A DNA stretch of 63,722 bases, counting the filler, from Octopus bimaculoides (taxonomy: Eukaryota): assembly GCF_001194135.2 (NCBI RefSeq). It is 4 parts of 4 records of this genome, joined end to end, with 100 filler letters (N's around TTAATTAATTAA, not from the genome) between each part and the next. Parts side by side here need not be neighbours in the genome. Positions count along the whole stretch, not along the records: positions 25,739 to 49,167 come from NC_068984.1; positions 49,268 to 60,043 come from NC_069001.1; 2 more parts are not named here. One strand, given 5' to 3'. The notes under the pieces are model-generated. The model did not search any database. It had not been told where the DNA came from and saw nothing but the letters and a program-made list of their open reading frames with translations. Of the stretch, positions 43,630 through 55,062 are shown one piece after another. Within the stretch, counting starts at the first letter, position 1, and each line of letters opens with the position of its first letter. Made by a program: the position numbers and the translations under genes.

Positions 43630-44136
43630 ATTAAATCTTGGGAGAGGCATTATGCCGGTAATAAACACACGCACTGGTTCAGTCCTTTATATATATATAT
43701 AATAACAATAATAATCCTAGGATTGAATTTGTAAACATTTAAAGCATCGCTTCGCGCGTTTCCACAGATCATATGACTCTTAGGATCACAGTCCGTATTC
43801 CTGGGATGGTTACAGTGTAGTCCGTAGTATCCGAGGGTATCCGGTTGATAATCATCCTTGACTTGTGTCTTCAGGCGATATAACATTGGTGGATGAACCA
43901 CAGAGAGATGTTTTCTCTCTTTTTTTTTACCAGTATGAAGGTCGAGTGAGTTAAGTAGGTATTTCTATGTAGACTGGGTAGAAATGCTTCTTGTCCATGG
44001 TACGTAGATTCCGATATTTTGTTATTACAAGCACATAGTGTGGAGACATAAATTCCATGTGCTGTTCATTCAAAGGAGTCTTTCCAAAATAACCCCTTAT
44101 ATTGAACTCTACTATTTCCGTCTAGTTAACTCTCTC

Positions 44137-44192
44137 ATATCGTCTCTGATGAAGGGATATCCCTAGTATCCCAGAAACAACTGTAAGAATAT
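44137..44192 (+). ncRNA. Candidate minimal type-I hammerhead ribozyme
   Basis: CTGATGA (44146-52), A, stem II GGGATA/TATCCC, A, GAAAC (44174-78), stem III ACA/TGT, GTA cleavage triplet (44183-85), stem I TCT/AGA extended by ATAT/ATAT. Confidence 0.6.
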
Positions 44193-44254
44193 CTTTCTCT
44201 GTGTAAATGTCCTATAAATTCCACACAGCCTTGGTTTTGATGTCTCATCTTATT

Positions 44255-44320
<66 letters not shown>

Positions 44321-45293
44321 GTTTACCATATTACATTTTAGATTTATAAAGCCTCATACCTTGATAGTGTGAGGACTAAGCCCTCCGTTGACAGGCCTCT
44401 TGTACAAACGACCTATTATTGATATTTATTTGACGTCCGGTCAGCAGAGACCCGTCGACTATGACAAAGGATATTACAGTTATGATTATTGAGACTCTCT
44501 ATACGAGGGATTCTACCATCTAAAGTATCCGTCTATATTTAACAATGTATTGTGTAATTTGGTGTACATGTGGTTGCTATTTCTAGTTTTATAGTTGTGC
44601 TTGCTTGCAAAATATATATTTGACAGAAGCAAACACCTCGTTAGCTGAGGATGATAAATGGTCGACTTTAGTGCCATATTAACGGCGATGCAACATCAAG
44701 ATTCTATAGAAGAAGTTGATTTATGCACCCATAACTCTCCGAGCCATTTTAGTTTTACAGATGCATATCACTGTTGTGATCGTCAGCTTTTTTTTACAAC
44801 GATTATGTGTCTCCGTCACGCATGCGATTCATTAGTACAGGGGATTCTAGGACACTGGTGTTTCGTAATGTGTCTTATTAACAAAAAGCACCCGAATACT
44901 TCTGACTGAACACAGAGTCGAGGTAAAGAGGAACTATTTTCGTATGACAAACACAGTTTATTTTGGAATCTGCCGGAAGGTATTGAGAATAAAGACAAGT
45001 CAATATTTCTATCATTTCCATACCATTCTTCCAATTCTCTTATTTGTTTTCTTGTCTAAGCTATATTCGGGGTATTTAGTTAAGGGAGAGTAAGGCTTAG
45101 GTGTACTGTTGTCAATAATCATTTTACATCCGCATGTTTTTTGTGCAAGCTACGGCAAGGCTTGATATGCCCCCGGGTTCACTGGAACAATATTTTATAG
45201 ATGCAGAGAGCAAATCTGGGTATTAAAATGGTAATTTCTTTGTTCGGAACTAAATCACACTAACGCACGACACACATGTACATCCACACACAT

Positions 45294-45338
<45 letters not shown>

Positions 45339-45823
45339 NNNNNNNNNNGAAAGAGAGAGAGAGAGAGAGAGAGAGACGACATAAATATTAAAACGTTTGG
45401 TGTCGAATAAGCCAGCGTCGATTCAGCGACGCCGATTAGTCGGCGTCAAAACGGCCGTGCCAAAACGACCGCACCAAAACGTCTCCTACTCGACTTAATG
45501 GTGTAGTTTTGGAGTCATTAAGCCGTGCCACTTCAGACTGAAACGTGTGGCATTGGAGAAATAAAGGTGTGATATTAATCATTTTTTTGAATATCTCATA
45601 TTATTGATTGCATTTGTAAGTGAATTCGAATTGGAAATGCAACGTTCCAGTGATGCTGCAGTGCGTAGTAAATGCATGCTACTGCACCATAGCATGGTTT
45701 GGTTGTAGTTGCATCATGCTGTTCGCCAACAATCTTATCTCAATAACTGCTCTGACATTCATTAAGAGCTGACAGAATCCTAATAAACACATACAAAGAT
45801 ATACATGCGCATAAACGCACACT

Positions 45824-45862
<39 letters not shown>

Positions 45863-46108
45863 TTACATCACAGCAGTTGACGATTATTCTGTATATTAGC
45901 TTACACTTATCACGTCTATGTTCCTACATCGATATTTACTTACCAAACATCATCACCGTCACAGCCACAAACCGTCACCGACACCAACTAACCCGACCGA
46001 ATGAATACAGAGATGTATTCGCCGAAATATAACCAAATAATTATATATACATATATATACATTACATACATACCCACATACACATATGTACATCATGCAA
46101 ACAAACGT

Positions 46109-46151
<43 letters not shown>

Positions 46152-46260
46152 CATGCACATAGGCATATACACGGATTCACACACATATATAAATATATAG
46201 GAATGCTTATATGTACATATATGCATATAAATACACCCCCCCCACACACACGTATATATA

Positions 46261-46319
<59 letters not shown>

Positions 46320-46759
46320 GACCGTGTATTGATATACTTTTGCGTCTCCCGCTTAAATGTGTGTATTTGTTTGTGTGCATGAGCATCTGTGCGCGCGGGC
46401 GGGTGTAAGTGTGTGTGAGTGTCACCTGATATTTTGAAACTAATATTACCCCAGTTTAGCTGTTATTATAACATATCGATCGCTCTAAAAGTTGTAGTAG
46501 AAATATACCTACATATTAACATGCAAACGTACGCCGTTGTAATATTATAATAGGCACATAGGAATGTATATATGTGTGTGTGTGCGCGGCGTGCGCGCGC
46601 GTGTATATGTACATGTGTGTTTGTGCGTATGTATATATATGTATATGTTTGTATATGTGTATACATCTATGTATATATATGTTTATCTGTATTTCCATCA
46701 CTCTCCACACACACGCGCGCACACCCACCCACATATATACATAAATATAATTGGAGCAT

Positions 46760-46828
<69 letters not shown>

Positions 46829-46925
46829 ATATAAGGTAATATTTATTCTTACTCAAAAGTGGGTTTTGTGTTAGAACACAGAAGAATGCGATAGTTAGCA
46901 TGGGAATAGATGTGATGTTGGTACA

Positions 46926-47308
46926 TAAGCGCACTTGTTTGCGTCACTAGCGGGAAGATAAGTGACTCGCGCTCGGCACTGCCGAGACCACCCGACCACG
47001 CGAACTCGGCCTTCCCTGGCCGCTCGGGGGCGCTGCAGATAGCAGCGATATCTCCAACACAATGTTCACTTTATGTGGGATAGATATTAACTTCTGGTGC
47101 TAAAAATGATATTTTAATAATTCCACTGGCTATTAGGCACACCCGCTATCTATTTAGGCACTGCATATCGCTAGCACAGCTATTGTTGCTATATCCAGCG
47201 TCCAAGCATCTACCATTGACAAGGCCAAGGAAAGCTGAAATCACATGATCTAGTGCCGATGGTGGGGTTTTTTTATCGCCCCGCTAGCGATGTAAACAAG
47301 AGTGCTTA
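46926..47308. mobile_element. MITE-like element, ~383 bp, with imperfect terminal inverted repeats
   Basis: Left taagcgcacttgtttgcgtcactagcgggaagataa versus reverse complement of right end taagcactcttgtttacatcgctagcggggcgataa (29/36). Inner tcggcact/agtgccga; GC/CpG-rich core. Confidence 0.7.
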
Positions 47309-47399
47309 CATGCTCCATAAACCAATATGCGAAGTTTCTCTCATGCTGTATATATCTATATCTATATCTATATACTGTTGAGGCTCAGTCTGTTTATTG

Positions 47400-47800
47400 C
47401 TATGTCTGTAGGCTTTGTAATCTCTCTAAGTGTCGGTTCTATGCGTCGATAATACCTTAGCCCCTATGCTAATAATCGAGCCTCTATGTTCTGCTTGAGT
47501 ATGTTGGTAGAGTACTGACGAGCCTTTCTCGTCTTTGAACTCTCGGCAGTGTTCACCTGTACGCTCCCCCATGTTGCATCCAGTCTGGCCAATATATGTT
47601 GTTGTCATGTTTCTGCACTGTCCTTCAGTGCATCGTAATCTATACACTATATTCCTAGCCTTATAGTTAACCCGTGCGTTCATCCTACATACAATACAAT
47701 TGTTCTCCGTACATTGGGTCCTACCAAAGAGTTAGGTTCTACAGATCAGGCATTTTATAGGGACACCAGGCCTTTCTACTACTTTAATCCATAGAATTAA
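47400..47800 (-). mobile_element. Penelope-like element remnant: Cys motif + GIY-YIG endonuclease
   Basis: QCTENNCIVC followed by NIVYRLRCTEGQCRNMTTTYIGQTGCNMGERTGEH (track ORF 47426..47683), matching the VY..C..C...YIGQT...R..EH pattern. Confidence 0.8.
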
Positions 47801-48206
47801 AGGGTCGAAGGAAAGTGTTACAAGTCTTTTGACGGGTTTGAAGAAAAATGTTTCAAGTACAACAGTTGTTTCCGGGATTTCAGTGGTCCAAAGTAATGCT
47901 TGTAAAGTGATTCTATCGTCGCATGAGACGGGTCTCCGGTGTCAGGGAAGAAATCCAACAGTTGAGATGTTGACATAAAGGAGTTTAAAGATGGGATGAT
48001 ATGTGAGAAACTATATATATATATGTATATACACGTGTATGTATGTATGTATATATATAGTTGATGTCATAAAATATGAACTTAAAGAACGCATGTGAAA
48101 TTATTCCTTTTTTTTTGGAACAGTGAAACTCGAAGCAGATAAAGGTATAAATAATAGCGTATAAACTTGGGGTGTATAACACCCTTTCGGTAGAATAAGT
48201 ACAAGG

Positions 48207-48249
<43 letters not shown>

Positions 48250-48250
<1 letters not shown>

Positions 48251-48530
48251 AAATCCCCCCAAAAAACGAAGAATAAACACAAAATAACAACAACGCGAGG
48301 ACGAGGTACATGTAAAGTATTAGCAGACGCTCAGGGAAGGAGAGAAATATGGTCTAACGTTTCGAGCAAAGCTCTTCTTCAGAAACAGAGGAAAGTCCAA
48401 TAGAAAAGGAAGACGGGGGAAGAAAATCGCTAATGATTCACATGTTACATTTTGAATATATATATTGATGGAAAAGGTAAGACAACAAAAGAAAGAAAGA
48501 GACCTCGATATTCTGTAAATAAAGGGATTT
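48250..48530 (-). mobile_element. Small non-coding PLE-terminal-repeat-like element carrying a hammerhead motif, in (TA)n context
   Basis: Contains the motif at 48352-48386. Lies between (TA)n at ~48208-48246 and, after an inverted repeat, (TA)n at ~48652. Same strand as the GIY-YIG remnant. Confidence 0.55.
48352..48386 (-). ncRNA. Candidate minimal (dimer-type) type-I hammerhead ribozyme
   Basis: Minus strand: GTTT-CTGAAGA-A-GAGC-TTT-GCTC-GAAACGTT-AGAC. Stem I GUUU/AGAC, stem II GAGC/GCUC, loopless palindromic stem III ACGU, GUU cleavage between 48356 and 48355. Confidence 0.65.
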
Positions 48531-49018
48531 ATCTGTAAATAATATGCGACAATTATTCGGTAGTTATGAAAAACTCCGAGTTTCCGCTCCTACATCCAAA
48601 ACTCGGAGTTTTATCATGGCTACCGAATAATTGTCACACATTATTTACAGATATATATATATATATATATATAATAATTTCCCAGAGGATGTAGCAACCG
48701 TTACCAATATAGCATAAGAACTTACCTTAGGAGATCATTAACTAGATTCCTTAAGGGTCGTTCTCACAGTTTATATTTATATTATAAAGTTTTTAACTTT
48801 TAAATTTTCATATTCAAAAGAGACAGACATCAAACTCGATATATCGATTTATTCACCACTCTATGTTAACATTTCTGTGCCAAACTTATCCAGTGACTGG
48901 TCCATTGGATTTAGACATTTGGCACTTCTTCAGGAGTCGTTACCATTCGAACAAAACACGAAAAAACACATACATAAATATTATTAAATCTTTAGAATCT
49001 CGTTAGATTTCGTCTTTG

Positions 49019-49053
<35 letters not shown>

Positions 49054-49267
49054 TATTTATTAAAAAAAAAATTTTTTTTTAAGTTTCAGCTTAGAGCTAC
49101 GGCCATGCTGATGCACCACCATGTTGCTACACTGTTATTACAGGGAGCCTCTTACAATATGTGGTACNNNNNNNNNNNNNNNNNNNNNNNNNNNNNNNNN
49201 NNNNNNNNNNNTTAATTAATTAANNNNNNNNNNNNNNNNNNNNNNNNNNNNNNNNNNNNNNNNNNNN

Positions 49268-49300
<33 letters not shown>

Positions 49301-49304
49301 TCAG

Positions 49305-49440
49305 TTCTACAGATGAGTGAACTGGAGCAACGTGAAATAAAGTGTTTTGCTCAAGAACACAACACAGCCCAGTCCAGGAATCGAACTAACTATCTCATGA
49401 TTATGAGTCCGGTGCTCTTACCACTGAGCTATGCGCCTTC
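49305..49440 (-). mobile_element. SINE family D, 5' part
   Basis: Minus strand gaaggcgcatagctcagtggtaagagc..gttcgattcctggactggg. Confidence 0.75.
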
Positions 49441-49789
49441 ACAAATATGTATATATGTATATAATGAGAGAAAAAAAGAACATGGACTTGCACTTGGTAC
49501 TAGTTTATTTAATCTGTTACATGTGTTTCAGTATTTGGTAACACATGATATCACACTATAGATGCTGTCTGTAGATGCATCTCATAAGGGCAGCATGCAT
49601 AACACAGGAGATGTGTTTTCTTATACTAGTGAGGTACTGGAGTCGACGTAATAGACTACCTGCCACTTATCTCAAAATTGCTGGCTTTGAGCCGAAATTA
49701 GAAGCAGTCATTTTGGTCTTGAAGGTTATTAATTAAAATAATTGATAGATTTTACGTGCAACAGAAGCAGTATTAGATTCAAATAACAG

Positions 49790-50274
49790 TCTGTGTATCA
49801 TACTTAATGTAAATACATGGCTGATAGACAAATTAACTGTGATATTCGTCAGTTGGTAATATCTCTTATGGAGGTACGGTGTTAACAACAAATATATAAG
49901 TAGCAGAGAAAAATTGTCCAGCAACGATAGTGAGAATGCTTGATGCATATTTCTGCTTTGTTGAGCTTTTTCAATAGCCTATACTCACTACCAACGGCAT
50001 GATAAGACAAAATCCGTCGCTAGTGATAGAGGAAAACTGACTGAAAAATCACTGATGTTGCAAGTAGCCGCCCGACTGAATAAAAATTCTGATAAATCTC
50101 ACGAACGTTAAATATACATCTAGCAATACTACTACAGTTGCTGGACGATTTTCGTTTGCTACTGTTATATCTTTGCGTTATTTAACACAGTATGTCCATA
50201 AGAGATATGTTCAGACGAATACCGCAGTGAGTTTGGTTTTGAGCGATGTGTTTGCTTCAAGTATGATACACAGA
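49790..50274. repeat. Long imperfect inverted repeat (arms ~49790-49952 and ~50110-50274), probably an old fold-back element
   Basis: Matched blocks tctgtgtatcatactt, atatctcttatgga and aaaat.gtccagcaac occur in reverse complement. Confidence 0.8.
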
Positions 50275-50594
50275 TCGCTAACTGATGTACTACGTTTACA
50301 TAGCTTGACTGAGAATAAGTCAAAATTTGGATTTTACACGCCACCAAAATATATGTTCCTACACGATTGCACTCACGATTGCTAGATCATGGTTTCGATT
50401 CCCAGATTGGGAAGTGCGTTGTGTTCTTGAGTAGAACACTTCATTTCGTGTTCTTTTATTCCACTCAGCTGTAAATAACACTGCAATAAATTGGCATCCC
50501 GTTTAGGAGGAATGATATGATTGTGGTGATGCGGTCATACTGGGGCACCACATTGAAGAATTCTGGGCCGAATGAAGCGAGCCAGTATTTATGT

Positions 50595-50720
50595 TTTTTT
50601 TTAAAGTCTGGTACTTTGTATATCAGTTTCTTTTGCCGAACCGCTAAAGTTACGGGGACGTAAACATACCAACGCAGATAAGGGGATAAATACAGACAGG
50701 GGCACAAACACAGACAGAAA
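50595..50720 (+). mobile_element. SINE family C, 3' part
   Basis: cttttgccgaaccgctaaagttacggggacgtaaacatacc. Confidence 0.7.
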
Positions 50721-51084
50721 GATACATCGTGCGTGCACGAGCGTGCGCGCACACACACGGTTCGAAATTGCAGGGAGAAAAAAAAACAGAAGACAGAGAC
50801 AGGCGAGGGAACAACAAACAAGTTGTATTAGCTTGACGATCAGGGAAGATGGAACAGTCTTTGATGTTTCGAACCTACGCTCTTCTATAGAAAGGAATAA
50901 GGAAAGAAAACATGGAGAAAAGCAAAAAAAAAAAAAAAACGTAGAGAGAAAATAAGCGTATCTGAATTTAGGGTTTTACATGTTGCACACACACAAACTC
51001 ATGTATATATGAGTATGTGTGTGTATGGGTATGTGTGTGCGTGTGCGTGTGTGTGTGTGTGTGTATACGATGTGTGTGTGTATA

Positions 51085-51215
51085 CGATGAACTTATTTCA
51101 GTTTCCGTCTGCCTAATCCACTCTCAAGTCTTTGGTCAGCTTCAAGCTGTAGTAGAAAACACTTGTCCATGGCACCACGCAATAGGACTGAACCCAGATC
51201 CATGTGGCTGCGGGG
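51085..51215 (-). mobile_element. SINE family B
   Basis: ttcagtttccgtctgcc..aacacttgtccatggcaccacgc. Confidence 0.7.
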
Positions 51216-51317
51216 NNNNNNNNNNNNNNNNNNNNNNNGGGGGGGGGGGGGGAGCAAACTTCTTATCATTCAGTCACGCCTGCGCTTGACTCGATACAGT
51301 AATGTTCGGCAGTTGAA

Positions 51318-51352
<35 letters not shown>

Positions 51353-52680
51353 GGTGGAGGAGGAGGATGAGAAACGTGGTGCTCGAGACTATCTTATTAT
51401 GTTTATTCCTCATAACCCAAGTTTCGGCTCCGTAGAGAATATTGTCATATGTCCAAGCTCTCACAAAGCCGGGACTGGATGGTCACTGCCAGAACGCCTT
51501 TGATCACAGATTTAATCGATCAGAGTTGAGCAGAGGTTAAACAACAACAACAACAACAACGCAGAAGTAATCAAATCAAATATGGTTTCATTAAGGATCT
51601 AATTAACCGAGATTTAGTATCAGAAAATTGTGGTTATGACTTTTCGCATTAAATAACAATCCACCACTACCGCCACTTCAATCACCGCCACAACCACCAC
51701 CACCATGACTACTACTACTACTGCTGTCATTGCTCGCCCCCACCACCATCACCAACACCATTACCCCCAGCACTACTTCGCCCACGATGTCCATCACCAC
51801 CACTACCACTACCACCACCACTACTACCACCACTACTACCTCCACCACCTCTACCACAAGTGCCTCTGAGCCCAAACCATCAGCTCCACAGTATTCCCAT
51901 CACCACTACCACCACCACCAATATATAATCACCACCGCCACTATAACTACCACCACACTTGCCGCCACCACCACCATCACCACTACAACTATTAAGAACA
52001 GGTCGACGGCGGTCACTGCTTAGACCATCATCACTATCACAAACCCCAACCATTCTCTCTACTACCACTACCACCAATACAACAATACTTTCAATATTTC
52101 CACTACTACTACTACCACCACCACCACCACTGAGACCACCAATACGATGACGGCTACAACAACTTCAAGACAACTGACGCCACCCCACCACTACTACCCC
52201 CACCATCACCACCAGCGCCGCCACGACAACGACGACGACCACCACCACCACCACCACCAACACTACCACCACCACCACCACTACCACCACCACCACCACC
52301 AACACTACCACCACCACCGATGTCACTACATTTTCGACATGGACTCCATCATCGCCATCCAATAACAATGAATCAACGACGAACGAACCAATCAGCATTG
52401 AGATCACCACCGCCACAGCCACAGCCACCGTCAAATCACCACTACCACCACCACCACCACCACTATCACCATCGCTATTGTGCCTCTCCTATCATTGTCC
52501 TACAGTAAATATTTCAGAGATCCATAAATCGTTTAATTAACCTCTCAGATACTACCGTTGAATATGTGATTCCCCAACAGTCTTGCACCCCACCCCACCA
52601 CAAACACCCACAAACACAAGCACACTTATTCATACATGGTTTTGCTTCAGCCTCACTTCTTTCTTTCTTTCTTTCTTTCT

Positions 52681-52727
<47 letters not shown>

Positions 52728-52734
52728 TATTATT

Positions 52735-53177
52735 TTCCCTTTCATCCTTTCGGGATTGATGTTAGCATGAGTACCAGTTGAGCACTGGAGTCGATGTAAT
52801 CGATTAACTCCCTAAAACCACAGATCCAGGCCTCGTTGTCTACAGTAGAAAAGGAAGTCCTAGCTTCCACAGTAGATATTCTAAAACAGAAACGATACAC
52901 AGAACATTAGCATGGCCATACGCAAGGACGACACGCAAATTCATGATGCCATGAAGCGTTTAATATTTTAAGGTGGAGAGCTGGCAGAGTCGTTAGGACA
53001 CTGGGCAAAAAGCTTAGTGGCAGTTCGTCTGTCTTTACGTTCCGACAAATTTCACTGAGGTCGACTTTGCCTTTCATCCTTTCTGGGTCGATAAAATGAG
53101 TACCAGTTAAACACTGTGGTCGATATAATCGACTTGCTTCCTTCCCCAGAGTACAAATATGCGAAGCCCAGTATACC
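52735..53177 (+). mobile_element. Two SINE family A copies (3' half 52735-52857; near full 52971-53177)
   Basis: ttcatcctttcggg..gtaccagttgagcactggagtcgat and gaggtcgactttgcctttcatcctttctgggtcgataaaatgagtaccag. Confidence 0.75.
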
Positions 53178-53650
53178 CGCTAAGATTATCCGTCTGATAA
53201 GGGTATACCAGGCACATGCATCACAACTATTGTTTAATATAGATGTTTTCGATCTAGTTTGGATTTTTGCCATCAAATTTGAATTCTTTGCCATCAAGTT
53301 TGATGGCAAAGAATCCAAACTAGATCGAAAACATCTATATATTTTTGTTTAATACATTGTTAATGTTGCTTTTTATGTTCTGTTACAATAAAAACGATTG
53401 TACATTAATTTGATGGATTACTGTATAATTTTGAATAGTGCAAATTTATCATTCTTAAACAAGAATATTATTGACTGTAGCTTCGAAGTTTCGGCTAGTT
53501 AAACCATCGTTTGACTGCCAATTAAGACATCGTCCGCCGATGGCTTAACTAACCGAAACTTCGAAGTCACTGTCAATAATATACTTTGTTAAGAATAATA
53601 TACACACACACATACACACGCGCACACACACACACACACTCACATACACA

Positions 53651-54130
53651 CAGGGTGCGATGGGTAAATTGTTGCCATTTTATATTTTTAATTTCGGGCA
53701 TGCTTATTGTTTGTTTTTCATTTTGTTGACTACACAGTATAGTAGGATCAGTTGGGCACCGTCTGCGAGAAAGACAGCACCATGATGCAATTTACTCAGC
53801 CAGGAATTTGGAAACGGCTTCTTGTACAGCTTGGCATTCGTGCTCGAAGCTCCAGTACGAACAGATGGTGAACACACAGAACAACCGTTGGCTTGCTGTG
53901 TCCCCAGAACATGTACCAAGAGTGATAAAAACCACACATCCAGTTTGGAGTGATTTCTAGTGATGGTGACATCATGCCTCAATTCGTCTTCCTACACGGC
54001 CTCAGACTCAACACACAGATCCTACATCAAGTGCCTGGACGAAGTAGTGCTTCCCTGCGTTAAGAGAGTGGCTGTTGGAAGACCCCATGTTTGGCAACAG
54101 GACTCTGCACCATGCCACATAGCCGTATAA
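53651..54130 (+). mobile_element. Tc1/mariner transposon remnant (catalytic-domain fragment)
   Basis: Starts CAGGGTG (TIR-like). Frameshifted FGVISSDGDIMPQFVFLHGLRLNTQ/YIKCLDEVVLPCVKRVAVGRPHVWQQDSAPCHIA with the QQDSAPxH second-D motif. Confidence 0.8.
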
Positions 54131-54134
54131 GCAG

Positions 54135-54345
54135 CACTTGTTACTGTACGAGGTCAACCGGATTTTCCTTTCCACACATCACACACTGCTCCAGTGTTTC
54201 GAACGTATCGCCAATCCGTGAAATTGTCAGGCGTATTGGAGGCTCTGTTCTAAACTCACGTCTCTATTACTGCTGAATTGTGACAACATTCTCAAATTTG
54301 AAATACCACTTTAAAATGGTCTTATGTTCCGTAAACAACAACCAT
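54135..54345 (-). mobile_element. Second Tc1/mariner-type remnant, N-terminal HTH region
   Basis: MVLFTEHKTILKWYFKFENVVTIQQ**RREFRTEPPIRLTISRIGDTFET/GAVCDVWKGKSG*PRT resembles the N-terminus of DUF4817-type transposases. Confidence 0.7.
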
Positions 54346-54739
54346 AATTCTGCCATTTTGTCACATTTACTTACAATAGCACCAAGAAGTCATAAGAAAG
54401 TTTCTAGTTTTTTTTTTAAATCTCAAAATAACACCCATTGACTATGCTATACATCAACAGTTGCTCAAGTGCAAAATAGCTTTTTCAGTATCACATCTCA
54501 CCAACAGCAAAAATTACGGTATTTTTAAAATGAAAAAGTTTTTGAGTACTTTTCACTTAAATTCTAAAAGAAATTAAGGATACCCAACCACTTTGATAAA
54601 GGTCAAAAGAAAAAAAAAACAAAAACAAAAAAGAGGCGGGGCAAAAAAAGGTTAAAGGTAACTTAATTAATTCCTTAATGTTTGAATAAATTTACTATCA
54701 AAATATCTTTTGGCGGATTATATATATGTATATATATAT

Positions 54740-55061
54740 CACACGTCAAAGTCACCAGCCCTCTTCCACGCACATATACATACTCTCTTATACACGGCCA
54801 CACGCGCCTTCGTTTTGGGATCACCACTACTTTATTATCTCCCCTTCTTCCTAGCTCCCCTGTGTGACCCCTCTGTCCGGCATTCGCCAAGATAGATCGC
54901 TATCCACTACACATTCTTTATTTTCTTTCCTTGTTTCTTTCCGTGTTCTTTTCTGTGGAAGAGCGTAGGCTCGAAACGTTAAAAACTTTTTCACTTTCCG
55001 AGCGTTAAACTAATACATCTGTCTTCGTCTTTTGTTGTTTTTTTTTTGTGAATTCTACCCC

Positions 55062-55062
<1 letters not shown>
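54740..55062 (+). mobile_element. Small non-coding element flanked by (TA)n carrying a hammerhead-like motif; related to the 48.3-kb element
   Basis: (TA)n on both sides. Pyrimidine-rich leader, hammerhead-like motif, then GAGCGT-N4-CTAATAC shared with the 48.3-kb element. Confidence 0.55.
54949..54984 (+). ncRNA. Candidate variant-core hammerhead ribozyme (CUGUGGA instead of CUGANGA)
   Basis: TTTT-CTGTGGA-A-GAGC-GTAG-GCTC-GAAACGTT-AAAA. Same architecture as 48352-48386; predicted cleavage after 54980. Confidence 0.5.

Follow-up and report, generated by a model that had tools for sequence, protein, structure and literature searches.

Penelope-like elements (PLEs) that carry minimal hammerhead ribozymes at their ends are already known. 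In metazoans, these type I hammerheads cleave weakly and as multimers only, and the core variant reported for them in the available text is U3-A8 (PMC4209133, Cervera and de la Pena 2014). Whether PLE minimal hammerheads cut in vivo, and for what purpose, is left open in the accessible parts of that paper and of PMC8557442. A natural hammerhead with an A6C change occurs in phage Bcep176, and the available portion of its description gives a low but detectable activity, with a kobs under 0.1 per min (PMC3088659, Perreault 2011). It has also been reported, in the part available, that chimeric RNA ligated by RtcB can be retrotransposed, as in the U6/LINE-1 chimeras (PMC6789731, Moldovan 2019).

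The window analysed here is a stretch of 63,722 nucleotides, filler included, from Octopus bimaculoides (GCF_001194135.2), made of four parts joined end to end. It contains the following features, where H1, A and B are three elements with a minimal hammerhead each:

43700 to 43970, plus strand: 5′ UTR piece of the PLE H1; in other copies it leads into an ORF similar to the N-terminal part of PLEs
43965 to 44082, minus strand: inverted 3′ UTR piece of H1, in the geometry of an inverted-truncated PLE insertion
44081 to 44257, plus strand: H1 terminal repeat followed by a (CA)n tract, about 90-92% identical to dispersed copies, which are often inverted pairs
44142 to 44189, plus strand: minimal hammerhead of H1, with a standard first core box and a predicted cut after 44185
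47375 to 47795, minus strand: GIY-YIG endonuclease remnant of an older, fourth PLE family, 79-86% identical to its other copies
48250 to 48465, minus strand: element A, 5′-truncated 3′ end of an autonomous Neptune/Nematis-type PLE, flanked by TA tracts
48317 to 48332, minus strand: downstream motif of A, retained in sister families whatever their stem II sequence
48352 to 48386, minus strand: minimal hammerhead of A, with a standard core, A at position 6 and a predicted cut after 48356
49168 to 49267, no strand: joint between two parts, filler rather than genome; A lies on contig C4 and B on contig C21
50821 to 50933, minus strand: decayed copy of the B lineage, core from 50890, with U at position 6 and a mutated G5
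54740 to 55062, plus strand: element B, 5′-truncated 3′ end of a sister Neptune/Nematis-type PLE, flanked by TA tracts
54949 to 54984, plus strand: minimal hammerhead of B, with U at position 6 (54956), the state of its family, and a predicted cut between 54980 and 54981
55000 to 55016, plus strand: downstream motif of B; in the window copy it is able to base-pair with stem II's 3′ strand, but the pairing is not conserved

The three hammerhead-like motifs noted in a preliminary description of this DNA are present, with cores from 44146 (plus), 48382 (minus) and 54953 (plus), and all three carry the extra A between positions 9 and 10.1. The CUGANGA first core box ascribed to them is standard in A and H1, but B has U rather than A at position 6 (hereafter U6). 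The decayed copy at 50821-50933 is a fourth hammerhead-type copy that had gone unmentioned. A permissive search pattern for minimal hammerheads has 10,737 matches genome-wide, compared with 37 for a reversed control, which is far above chance, and no hammerhead family appears among the 150 of 288 Rfam matches listed.

The three motifs are the 5′-truncated 3′ ends of three different PLE families. They had been placed within 11 kb of each other, but the joint sits between A (G000:C4:479704-479984) and B (G000:C21:13495019-13495341), and thus there is no local cluster of three related elements. Nor do they form one family. As had been noted, stem II is shared by A and B, and so are the second core box, including its 4-nt palindrome, and the downstream motif (48332-48317 and 55000-55016). 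The motif at 44146, on the other hand, comes from an unrelated family, whose stem II is 6 bp long with an extra A on either side and whose palindrome is 8 nt, with one change in the window copy. In A, stems I and II are 4 bp each and the palindrome is 4 nt.

Elements A and B are best read from their sequences as the truncated ends of sister Neptune/Nematis-type PLEs, the type being assigned by features rather than by an RT tree. We take Neptune to be the likelier clade label of the two. ORFs with RT and GIY-YIG domains lie colinear upstream of A ends (L522, L526 and L527) and of B ends as well. The homologs of these ORFs carry RVT_1 and GIY-YIG, while the decayed genomic pieces by themselves fall below the Pfam cut-offs. 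A CX2-5CxxC linker precedes the endonuclease in L012, L118, L122, L126 and L133. Eight of the best 25 ORF loci reach the B-lineage ribozyme, seven of them with U6 and one with a deletion at position 6. In addition, a full-length B-lineage copy at G000:C19 (L542+L602) has two U6 ribozymes, one in each terminal repeat, around an ORF that matches aa 1-904 of an RT+GIY-YIG homolog. It is the one copy with both repeats recovered for this lineage, and none was recovered for A. The colinear ORFs and the full-length copy argue against the non-autonomous retrozyme family that had been proposed.

The elements are also not fixed units of about 300 bp, as first thought. Homology in A covers 48250-48465 only, and copies of both families extend upstream by varying lengths, into long 3′ UTRs and ORFs. 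The 3′ end is fixed and followed by TA repeats, which points to microsatellite targets, and the 5′ truncation is variable. The assignment of the ribozymes as minimal type I hammerheads of PLE terminal repeats, with a palindromic stem III, held up, and stems I and II covary: in 23 hand-picked rows, 91% of cells are paired, with 29 double changes and 0 of 500 shuffles reaching the score.

The H1 ORF piece gives a weak profile match (L062, PLE positions 225-333, iE 6.5e-4), and its 3′ UTR piece lies on the same strand and immediately upstream of the ribozyme end in L069, L070, L075 and L078. The endonuclease remnant, around which the elements had been grouped, represents a fourth PLE family and is unlinked to A, B or H1. 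It has 33% identity over 40 aa to the endonuclease of A. Of its 24 other copies, none lies within 1.5 kb of an A-type end, and a B-type end accompanies a single one, on the opposite strand. Homolog searches with the H1 ORF piece and with the remnant found nothing.

The U6 change is the rule in the lineage of B, which accounts for about 86 of the first 100 of the 10,737 pattern matches. Copies of the family were gathered regardless of their ribozyme, and 3 of 30 loci were left out as truncated. Among the remaining 27, position 6 is U in 26, C in one and A in none. C3, G5, G8, A9, G12-A15.1, U16.1 and position 10.1 are kept in all 27 of these copies, and C11.1 in 26. The dominant and youngest lineage is fixed for U6. 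In six U6 groups that are 69-92% identical, the only differences in the ribozyme consensus are at position 7, in loop 2 and at position 17, where G never occurs. U6 has been maintained through six or more subfamilies with changes almost confined to free positions.

One U6 subfamily has 997 exact copies, compared to 46 with A6 and an identical stem II. These 46 may be back-mutants of old U6 copies rather than an ancestral A6 subfamily, because U6 is the state of old copies that bear an ORF and share the flanks. Another subfamily, which combines U4A with A6U, has also spread (4 among the first 100 matches of one pattern search), which shows that further core decay is tolerated. A separate count of this subfamily (8 matches) is an undercount because the flanking filter excluded its usual base. 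In the literature searched, no natural A6U hammerhead and no cross-family PLE cut-site chimera was found; such variants may be described by Arkhipova et al. 2017 and by Lunse et al. 2017, whose subject is reportedly variation among PLE hammerheads.

Two genomic chimeras (L369 and L370) bear on the activity of the U6 hammerhead. Their two loci are G000:C3:138886264 and G000:C6:22845798. Each joins the 5′ half of another PLE family's hammerhead to the 3′ half of the B lineage, and both junctions fall at both predicted cut sites, after position 17 on either side, without microhomology. The partner families run on differently past their own cut sites. A pattern that allows any junction, with a spacing of 45-105 nt, returns exactly two fusions, and both of them (2/2) are joined at both cut sites. 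The chance of this is roughly 5e-8, or 3e-5 with 2 nt of slack, in a calculation that ignores the structural equivalence of the junction places. These chimeras suggest, indirectly, that the U6 ribozyme of the B lineage is likely still cut in living cells. They are known from the assembly, as no read in the raw data of three runs and no listed contig spans the L369 junction.

There is no A-family chimera of this type (three matches, all slips), and no reciprocal chimera with the halves swapped among 13 matches. A partner-side pattern gives 130 matches against 111 in its control, and in a second such pattern another family dominates the first 100 of 1,010 matches. Since the 5′-end pattern filters would exclude fusions to U6 snRNA, the U6 snRNA copies were examined separately, and 0 of 44 (of 48 listed) are fused to a PLE cut site.

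Taken together, we consider it probable that A and B are the ends of sister autonomous PLEs and that the U6 hammerhead of the B lineage is still cut, probably as a dimer, with its products likely re-ligated in vivo. In a transcript covering both repeats, the two 4-nt palindromes would pair and form stem III. Cutting after position 17 would then leave 2′,3′-cyclic-phosphate and 5′-OH ends, which RtcB or the ribozyme could join into a circle or, rarely, to the cut RNA of another family. The RT/endonuclease of the element would copy the joined RNA into TA microsatellites, and the RT would usually drop off within about 200 nt, leaving stubs like A and B. Such ribozymes would be slow, with positions 4 and 6 (the uridine turn) relaxed and the catalytic G8 and G12 retained. 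We lean slightly towards the wider proposal that the dominant PLE lineage uses a hammerhead without A6 that is cut and ligated in cells, and that cross-family cut products were joined before reverse transcription, leaving fusions.

The alternative that survives best, though unlikely, accepts the PLE ends but holds the U6 hammerhead to be catalytically dead and retained as a folded signal for an element protein, with the chimeras produced when the RT switched templates, or through recombination, at equivalent structures. Position 6 changes reduce activity in the published tests available (PMC3088659), core changes at positions 3-6 are found in many families of this genome, and Naiad PLEs are described in the accessible text of PMC8557442 as having spread without canonical hammerheads. 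The 5′ ends at the cut sites that the preliminary description had proposed to look for also do not accumulate, either among genomic copies or in RNA reads. Among truncated genomic copies, 8 of 63 5′ ends lie at the cut compared to 1-8 at each of ten neighbouring positions, in a tally read by eye from the first 100 of 154 matches. In RNA-seq from unstranded libraries (about 6% of three runs), depth is smooth over the ribozyme, with no pile-up of ends at the cut. A homology-led switch, however, would be expected in the shared second core box, and the junctions are not there; they lack microhomology and follow position 17 on both sides. G8, G12 and the exclusion of G at position 17 have moreover been preserved through the subfamilies.

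A more doubtful idea is that the downstream motif is an off-switch in single copies, where it would sequester stem II's 3′ strand, as suggested earlier, or else the palindrome of stem III. For A and B, the minimum-energy and centroid folds do pair the motif with the 3′ strand of stem II, but these folds are no better than shuffles (z -1.9 to +0.8). The helix lacks covariation, its score being reached in 157 of 500 shuffles, and it is broken at one pair in all nine rows with an altered stem II. The idea fails because compensatory changes in stem II, from family to family, leave the downstream motif as it is; a young sister family of A (8 copies) is one such case, and an older family is missing the motif altogether. 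In 91% of cells the motif could pair with the palindrome instead, but both sides are invariant and hence 500 of 500 shuffles reach the score. The presence of the motif in both A and B reflects simple homology between sister families. Since A and B themselves allow the pairing, an off-switch effect may be limited to their lineage. The motif was also considered as a second cut site and dismissed because, by inspection, A and the youngest subfamily would not be able to form stem I.

In size, most copies are near 200 bp, and 5′ ends often fall 60-90 nt upstream of the core. The youngest subfamily reaches about 130 nt upstream in only 87 copies, as against about 2,800 by extrapolation, and has yielded no ORF-linked copy, and RNA reads show head-to-tail pairs with a TA spacer. 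Yet it is very improbable that the short copies are a non-autonomous retrozyme-like element transcribed and copied by itself, since the 5′ ends are graded rather than fixed, long young copies either enter the same 3′ UTR or meet assembly gaps, ORF-bearing copies occur in A's and B's own subfamilies where the parent of a retrozyme has no coding capacity, and the copies are dispersed singly without tandem arrays, pairs being occasional. At the back-joints in RNA, the TA spacers differ in length, a pattern that fits head-to-tail pairs in the genome better than unit-length circular RNA.

The fixation of U6 in a lineage of thousands of copies broadens the natural hammerhead core consensus, and descriptors that require the standard first core box would miss this lineage. 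The U6 and A6 sister families are a ready test pair, and chimeras joined at two cut sites make cutting and ligation in vivo directly testable. If the proposal is true, cross-family fusions record ribozyme activity and provide a route for swapping element ends.

These elements resemble described systems in several ways. Like the PLE minimal hammerheads in the available text of PMC4209133, the ribozymes have an extra nucleotide at 9/10.1, a G10.1-C11.1 pair, a palindrome for helix III and a short helix I, and they lie in terminal repeats, mostly as single copies left by truncated PLEs. Both the additional A and the palindrome at stem III have been published as PLE traits. In contrast, all 44 alignment rows examined of the 56 in that paper have A6 and none is from a cephalopod, while U6 is the majority state of the largest lineage here. 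The accessible part of PMC4209133 also contains no evidence of cutting in vivo.

The single ORF with RT and C-terminal GIY-YIG, the CX2-5CxxC linker, the partial-tandem terminal repeats and the microsatellite targets are shared with Neptune/Nematis PLEs, as far as these are described in the text available (PMC8557442). Metazoan non-LTR retrozymes are likewise short, hammerhead-bearing, PLE-related repeats; in the portions of the reports available, however, they are tandem non-coding units with mostly canonical hammerheads and circular RNAs, whereas the copies here are dispersed stubs of coding elements (PMC7229834; bioRxiv 10.64898/2026.07.22.740005). As in the U6/LINE-1 chimeras, a cyclic-phosphate end would have been joined to a 5′-OH end and the product retrotransposed, but in the octopus each of the two ends would derive from a ribozyme cut, in different retrotransposon families, and ligation is presumed (PMC6789731, available part). 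The Bcep176 hammerhead is also a natural motif changed at core position 6. It has C and is a single phage example in the text available (PMC3088659), whereas the octopus motif has U and is present in thousands of copies of an animal retrotransposon.

What is new here is a hammerhead core in which position 6 is fixed as U (U6, distinct from U6 snRNA), together with double-cut-site chimeras; both bear on whether the hammerheads of Penelope-like elements (PLEs) work in vivo. The three hammerhead-like motifs of the preliminary description were all found in the window. Their clustering within 11 kb does not hold, as the window is joined from parts and the joint at 49168-49267 separates A from B; the two map to different contigs (A to G000:C4, B to G000:C21), so their nearness is without meaning.

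48250-48465 (-): element A, hammerhead-bearing PLE 3′ end
54740-55062 (+): element B, hammerhead-bearing PLE 3′ end
44146 (+): motif of a third PLE family, whose insertions occur as inverted pairs
50821-50933: decayed further copy of B's lineage (B and related subfamilies), absent from the preliminary description
48531-48652: MITE-like inverted-repeat element adjoining A

Element A itself was confirmed, while about 65 bp of the range once assigned to it are not A. Genome-wide, these are high-copy repeats, with 4,174 first-look candidates for B, 4,286 for A and 3,420 for the 44146 element. Genome matches to a loose minimal-hammerhead pattern number 10,737, compared to 37 for the reversed control.

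The 3′ point of B copies is fixed and followed by TA repeats, and their upstream extent varies. Upstream of a C/A-rich 3′ UTR, long B copies contain an ORF with an RT catalytic motif, a CX4CxxC linker and a GIY-YIG domain. A copies have the same arrangement, with an RT and GIY-YIG ORF upstream of the ribozyme end, and RVT_1 and GIY-YIG are present in homologs of the ORF. The endonucleases of A and B are 57% identical across 44 aa, which makes the two elements sister families and their common downstream motif (48332-48317 in A, 55000-55016 in B) homologous; the linker points to Neptune or Nematis as the clade. A colinear B-lineage ribozyme is reached by 8 of the 25 best ORF loci extracted, and L542 and L602 form one full-length locus whose ORF spans aa 1-904 of a homolog.

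L542 + L602: ribozyme-bearing upstream terminal repeat, 5′ UTR rich in pyrimidines, ORF, ribozyme-bearing downstream repeat

This is the canonical PLE layout as given in PMC4209133 and PMC8557442. In the full-length element, a long pyrimidine tract with a splice-acceptor-like end, at L542:3690-3760 (-), directly precedes the start codon, as would be expected for a 5′ UTR intron like that of Penelope. Among minimal hammerheads of PLEs, both the extra A and the palindrome count as conserved features, and truncated PLEs supply most genomic motifs, as single copies (PMC4209133). The PLE-terminal-repeat reading of the elements stands; given the colinear ORFs upstream and the full-length locus, they belong to a known class, and the separate non-autonomous, retrozyme-like family once proposed is not supported. 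The endonuclease remnant at 47375-47795, once taken as the hub of A and B, belongs to a fourth family and shares 33% identity with the endonuclease of A. Two short motifs, 110-140 nt upstream of the core, recur throughout A, B and their sister families; 5′ truncation points are frequent directly downstream of the second. A promoter or an RT pause is possible.

The uridine turn of the hammerhead takes in core positions 4-6. B's first core box had been taken as standard; its position 6 is actually U. Among the first 100 of the 10,737 loose-pattern matches, judged by eye, position 6 is U in about 86, A in 11, C in 2 and G in 1, and exact copies of a single U6 subfamily number 997, compared to 46 for the A6 version with an identical stem II. 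In a census anchored downstream of the ribozyme, 27 of 30 loci reach it; position 6 is U in 26, C in one and A in none, and C3, G5, G8, A9, G12-A15.1 and U16.1 are invariant in all 27. Because every outgroup family examined carries A6, U6 is derived. Six U6 groups share 69-92% mutual identity over about 160 nt and diverge from their own consensus by about 13% down to 3-4% (the groups are small, and similarity played a part in their choice). In these groups the consensus of the ribozyme varies only at position 7 (U, C or G, with A among loose-pattern matches), loop 2 and position 17 (A, U or C), which are the places left free by a hammerhead. One exception, a subfamily of B's lineage (L225, L226, L261-L268), has U4A in addition to A6U. 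G8 and G12 are catalytic residues, and the hammerhead contains a uridine turn (PMC6155905); PMC3088659 gives the activity of a natural A6C hammerhead as low yet detectable.

Stem pairing was assessed on 23 rows picked by hand, namely three A/B-type copies from the window and 20 that represent related families and subfamilies. Pairing in stems I and II covers 91% of cells, and 29 double changes were counted; these figures, which kinship of the rows inflates, exceed 500 of 500 shuffles and every slid control. The downstream motif had been proposed as an off-switch that pairs with the 3′ strand of stem II; this helix is 77% paired, its covariation is no better than shuffles, and its pair 29-63 is broken in all nine rows with altered stem II. 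In a young sister family of A, pair 10.2-11.2 has changed from A-U to G-C and the motif is intact in seven of eight copies. Most of it is retained in an older family that has a third stem II sequence, and another family is without it. The competing pairing does show up in the folds predicted for A and B, whose z-scores are near zero. The lack of covariation, and retention of the motif through stem II change, argue that it is conserved for a reason other than an off-switch.

The distribution of 5′ ends near the cut, after position 17, is flat, with 8 at the cut among 63 truncations (first 100 of 154 matches). Two of these are fusions with other hammerhead-bearing families.

L369: hammerhead 5′ half of family K up to its position 17, then the first post-cut base of the youngest U6 subfamily
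L370: 5′ half from family K2, related to K; same type of joint; 3′ half from an older U6 subfamily

Microhomology is absent at both junctions. Family K has 479 pattern matches, a 5-bp stem I and an 8-nt palindrome with compensatory variation, and K2 has GIY-YIG upstream. A genome-wide search for a K-type core with the B-lineage 3′ motif, allowing any junction at 45-105 nt spacing, returned only L369 and L370. A rough calculation puts the chance of both double-cut-site joints at 5e-8, rising to 3e-5 when 2 nt of slack are allowed, for these two cases (n=2) and with structural equivalence of the sites disregarded. For U6/LINE-1, PMC6789731 describes a cyclic-phosphate end ligated to a 5′-OH end and then retrotransposed; an end-to-end template jump would likewise require both cut ends. 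Pattern searches returned no further fusions from any longer-palindrome family and no such cut-site fusion for A. RNA reads (three runs, about 6%, unstranded) showed no end pile-up at the cut, no read was found across the L369 junction, and U6 snRNA was fused to a PLE in none of 44 copies examined.

Several other variants were observed. Family K (L399-L413) is young and PLE-type, with C for U at core position 4 and, ahead of the second core box, a U in place of the normal spacing; C at position 4 also occurs in two copies of an A/B sister family (L146:1800-1879, L003:2196-2275). Many K2 copies (L459-L468) have C where the extra A after position 9 is usual. Family K3 (L479-L508) consists of near-identical copies, most of the 1,010 pattern matches among those listed, with an extra A between core positions 3 and 4. 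A U6 snRNA pseudogene (Rfam, 56.3 bits) followed by a SINE lies at 52860-52962 (+) in the window, and SINE-like repeats are fused to most of the 44 other U6 snRNA copies (L562-L606). Reads of the three runs also rejoin element end to start across 8-12-nt TA spacers (L322:1261-1456), probably reflecting genomic copies paired head to tail, in which two ribozymes would lie about 200 nt from each other.

From the layout, stubs and fusions observed, we infer dimer cutting, ligation and circles. A transcript over both terminal repeats would bear two ribozymes, whose 4-nt palindromes could pair as stem III, extrapolating from PMC4209133. Both would cut, and joining of the ends would give a circle with a single intact repeat. 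A nicked TA tract would then prime reverse transcription, which would pass the joint into the 3′ UTR; the usual early stop would leave stubs with sequence from both sides of the cut, so that no 5′-end pile-up would form there. Continuation beyond one full round would give a partial tandem as in L602, and rare mis-ligation a cross-family fusion.

Neither a natural fixed-U6 hammerhead nor a double-cut-site PLE chimera was found in print, within an incompletely covered literature on PLE hammerhead variants. In the published PLE hammerhead alignment, all 44 of the rows examined have A6, whereas B's lineage has U6.
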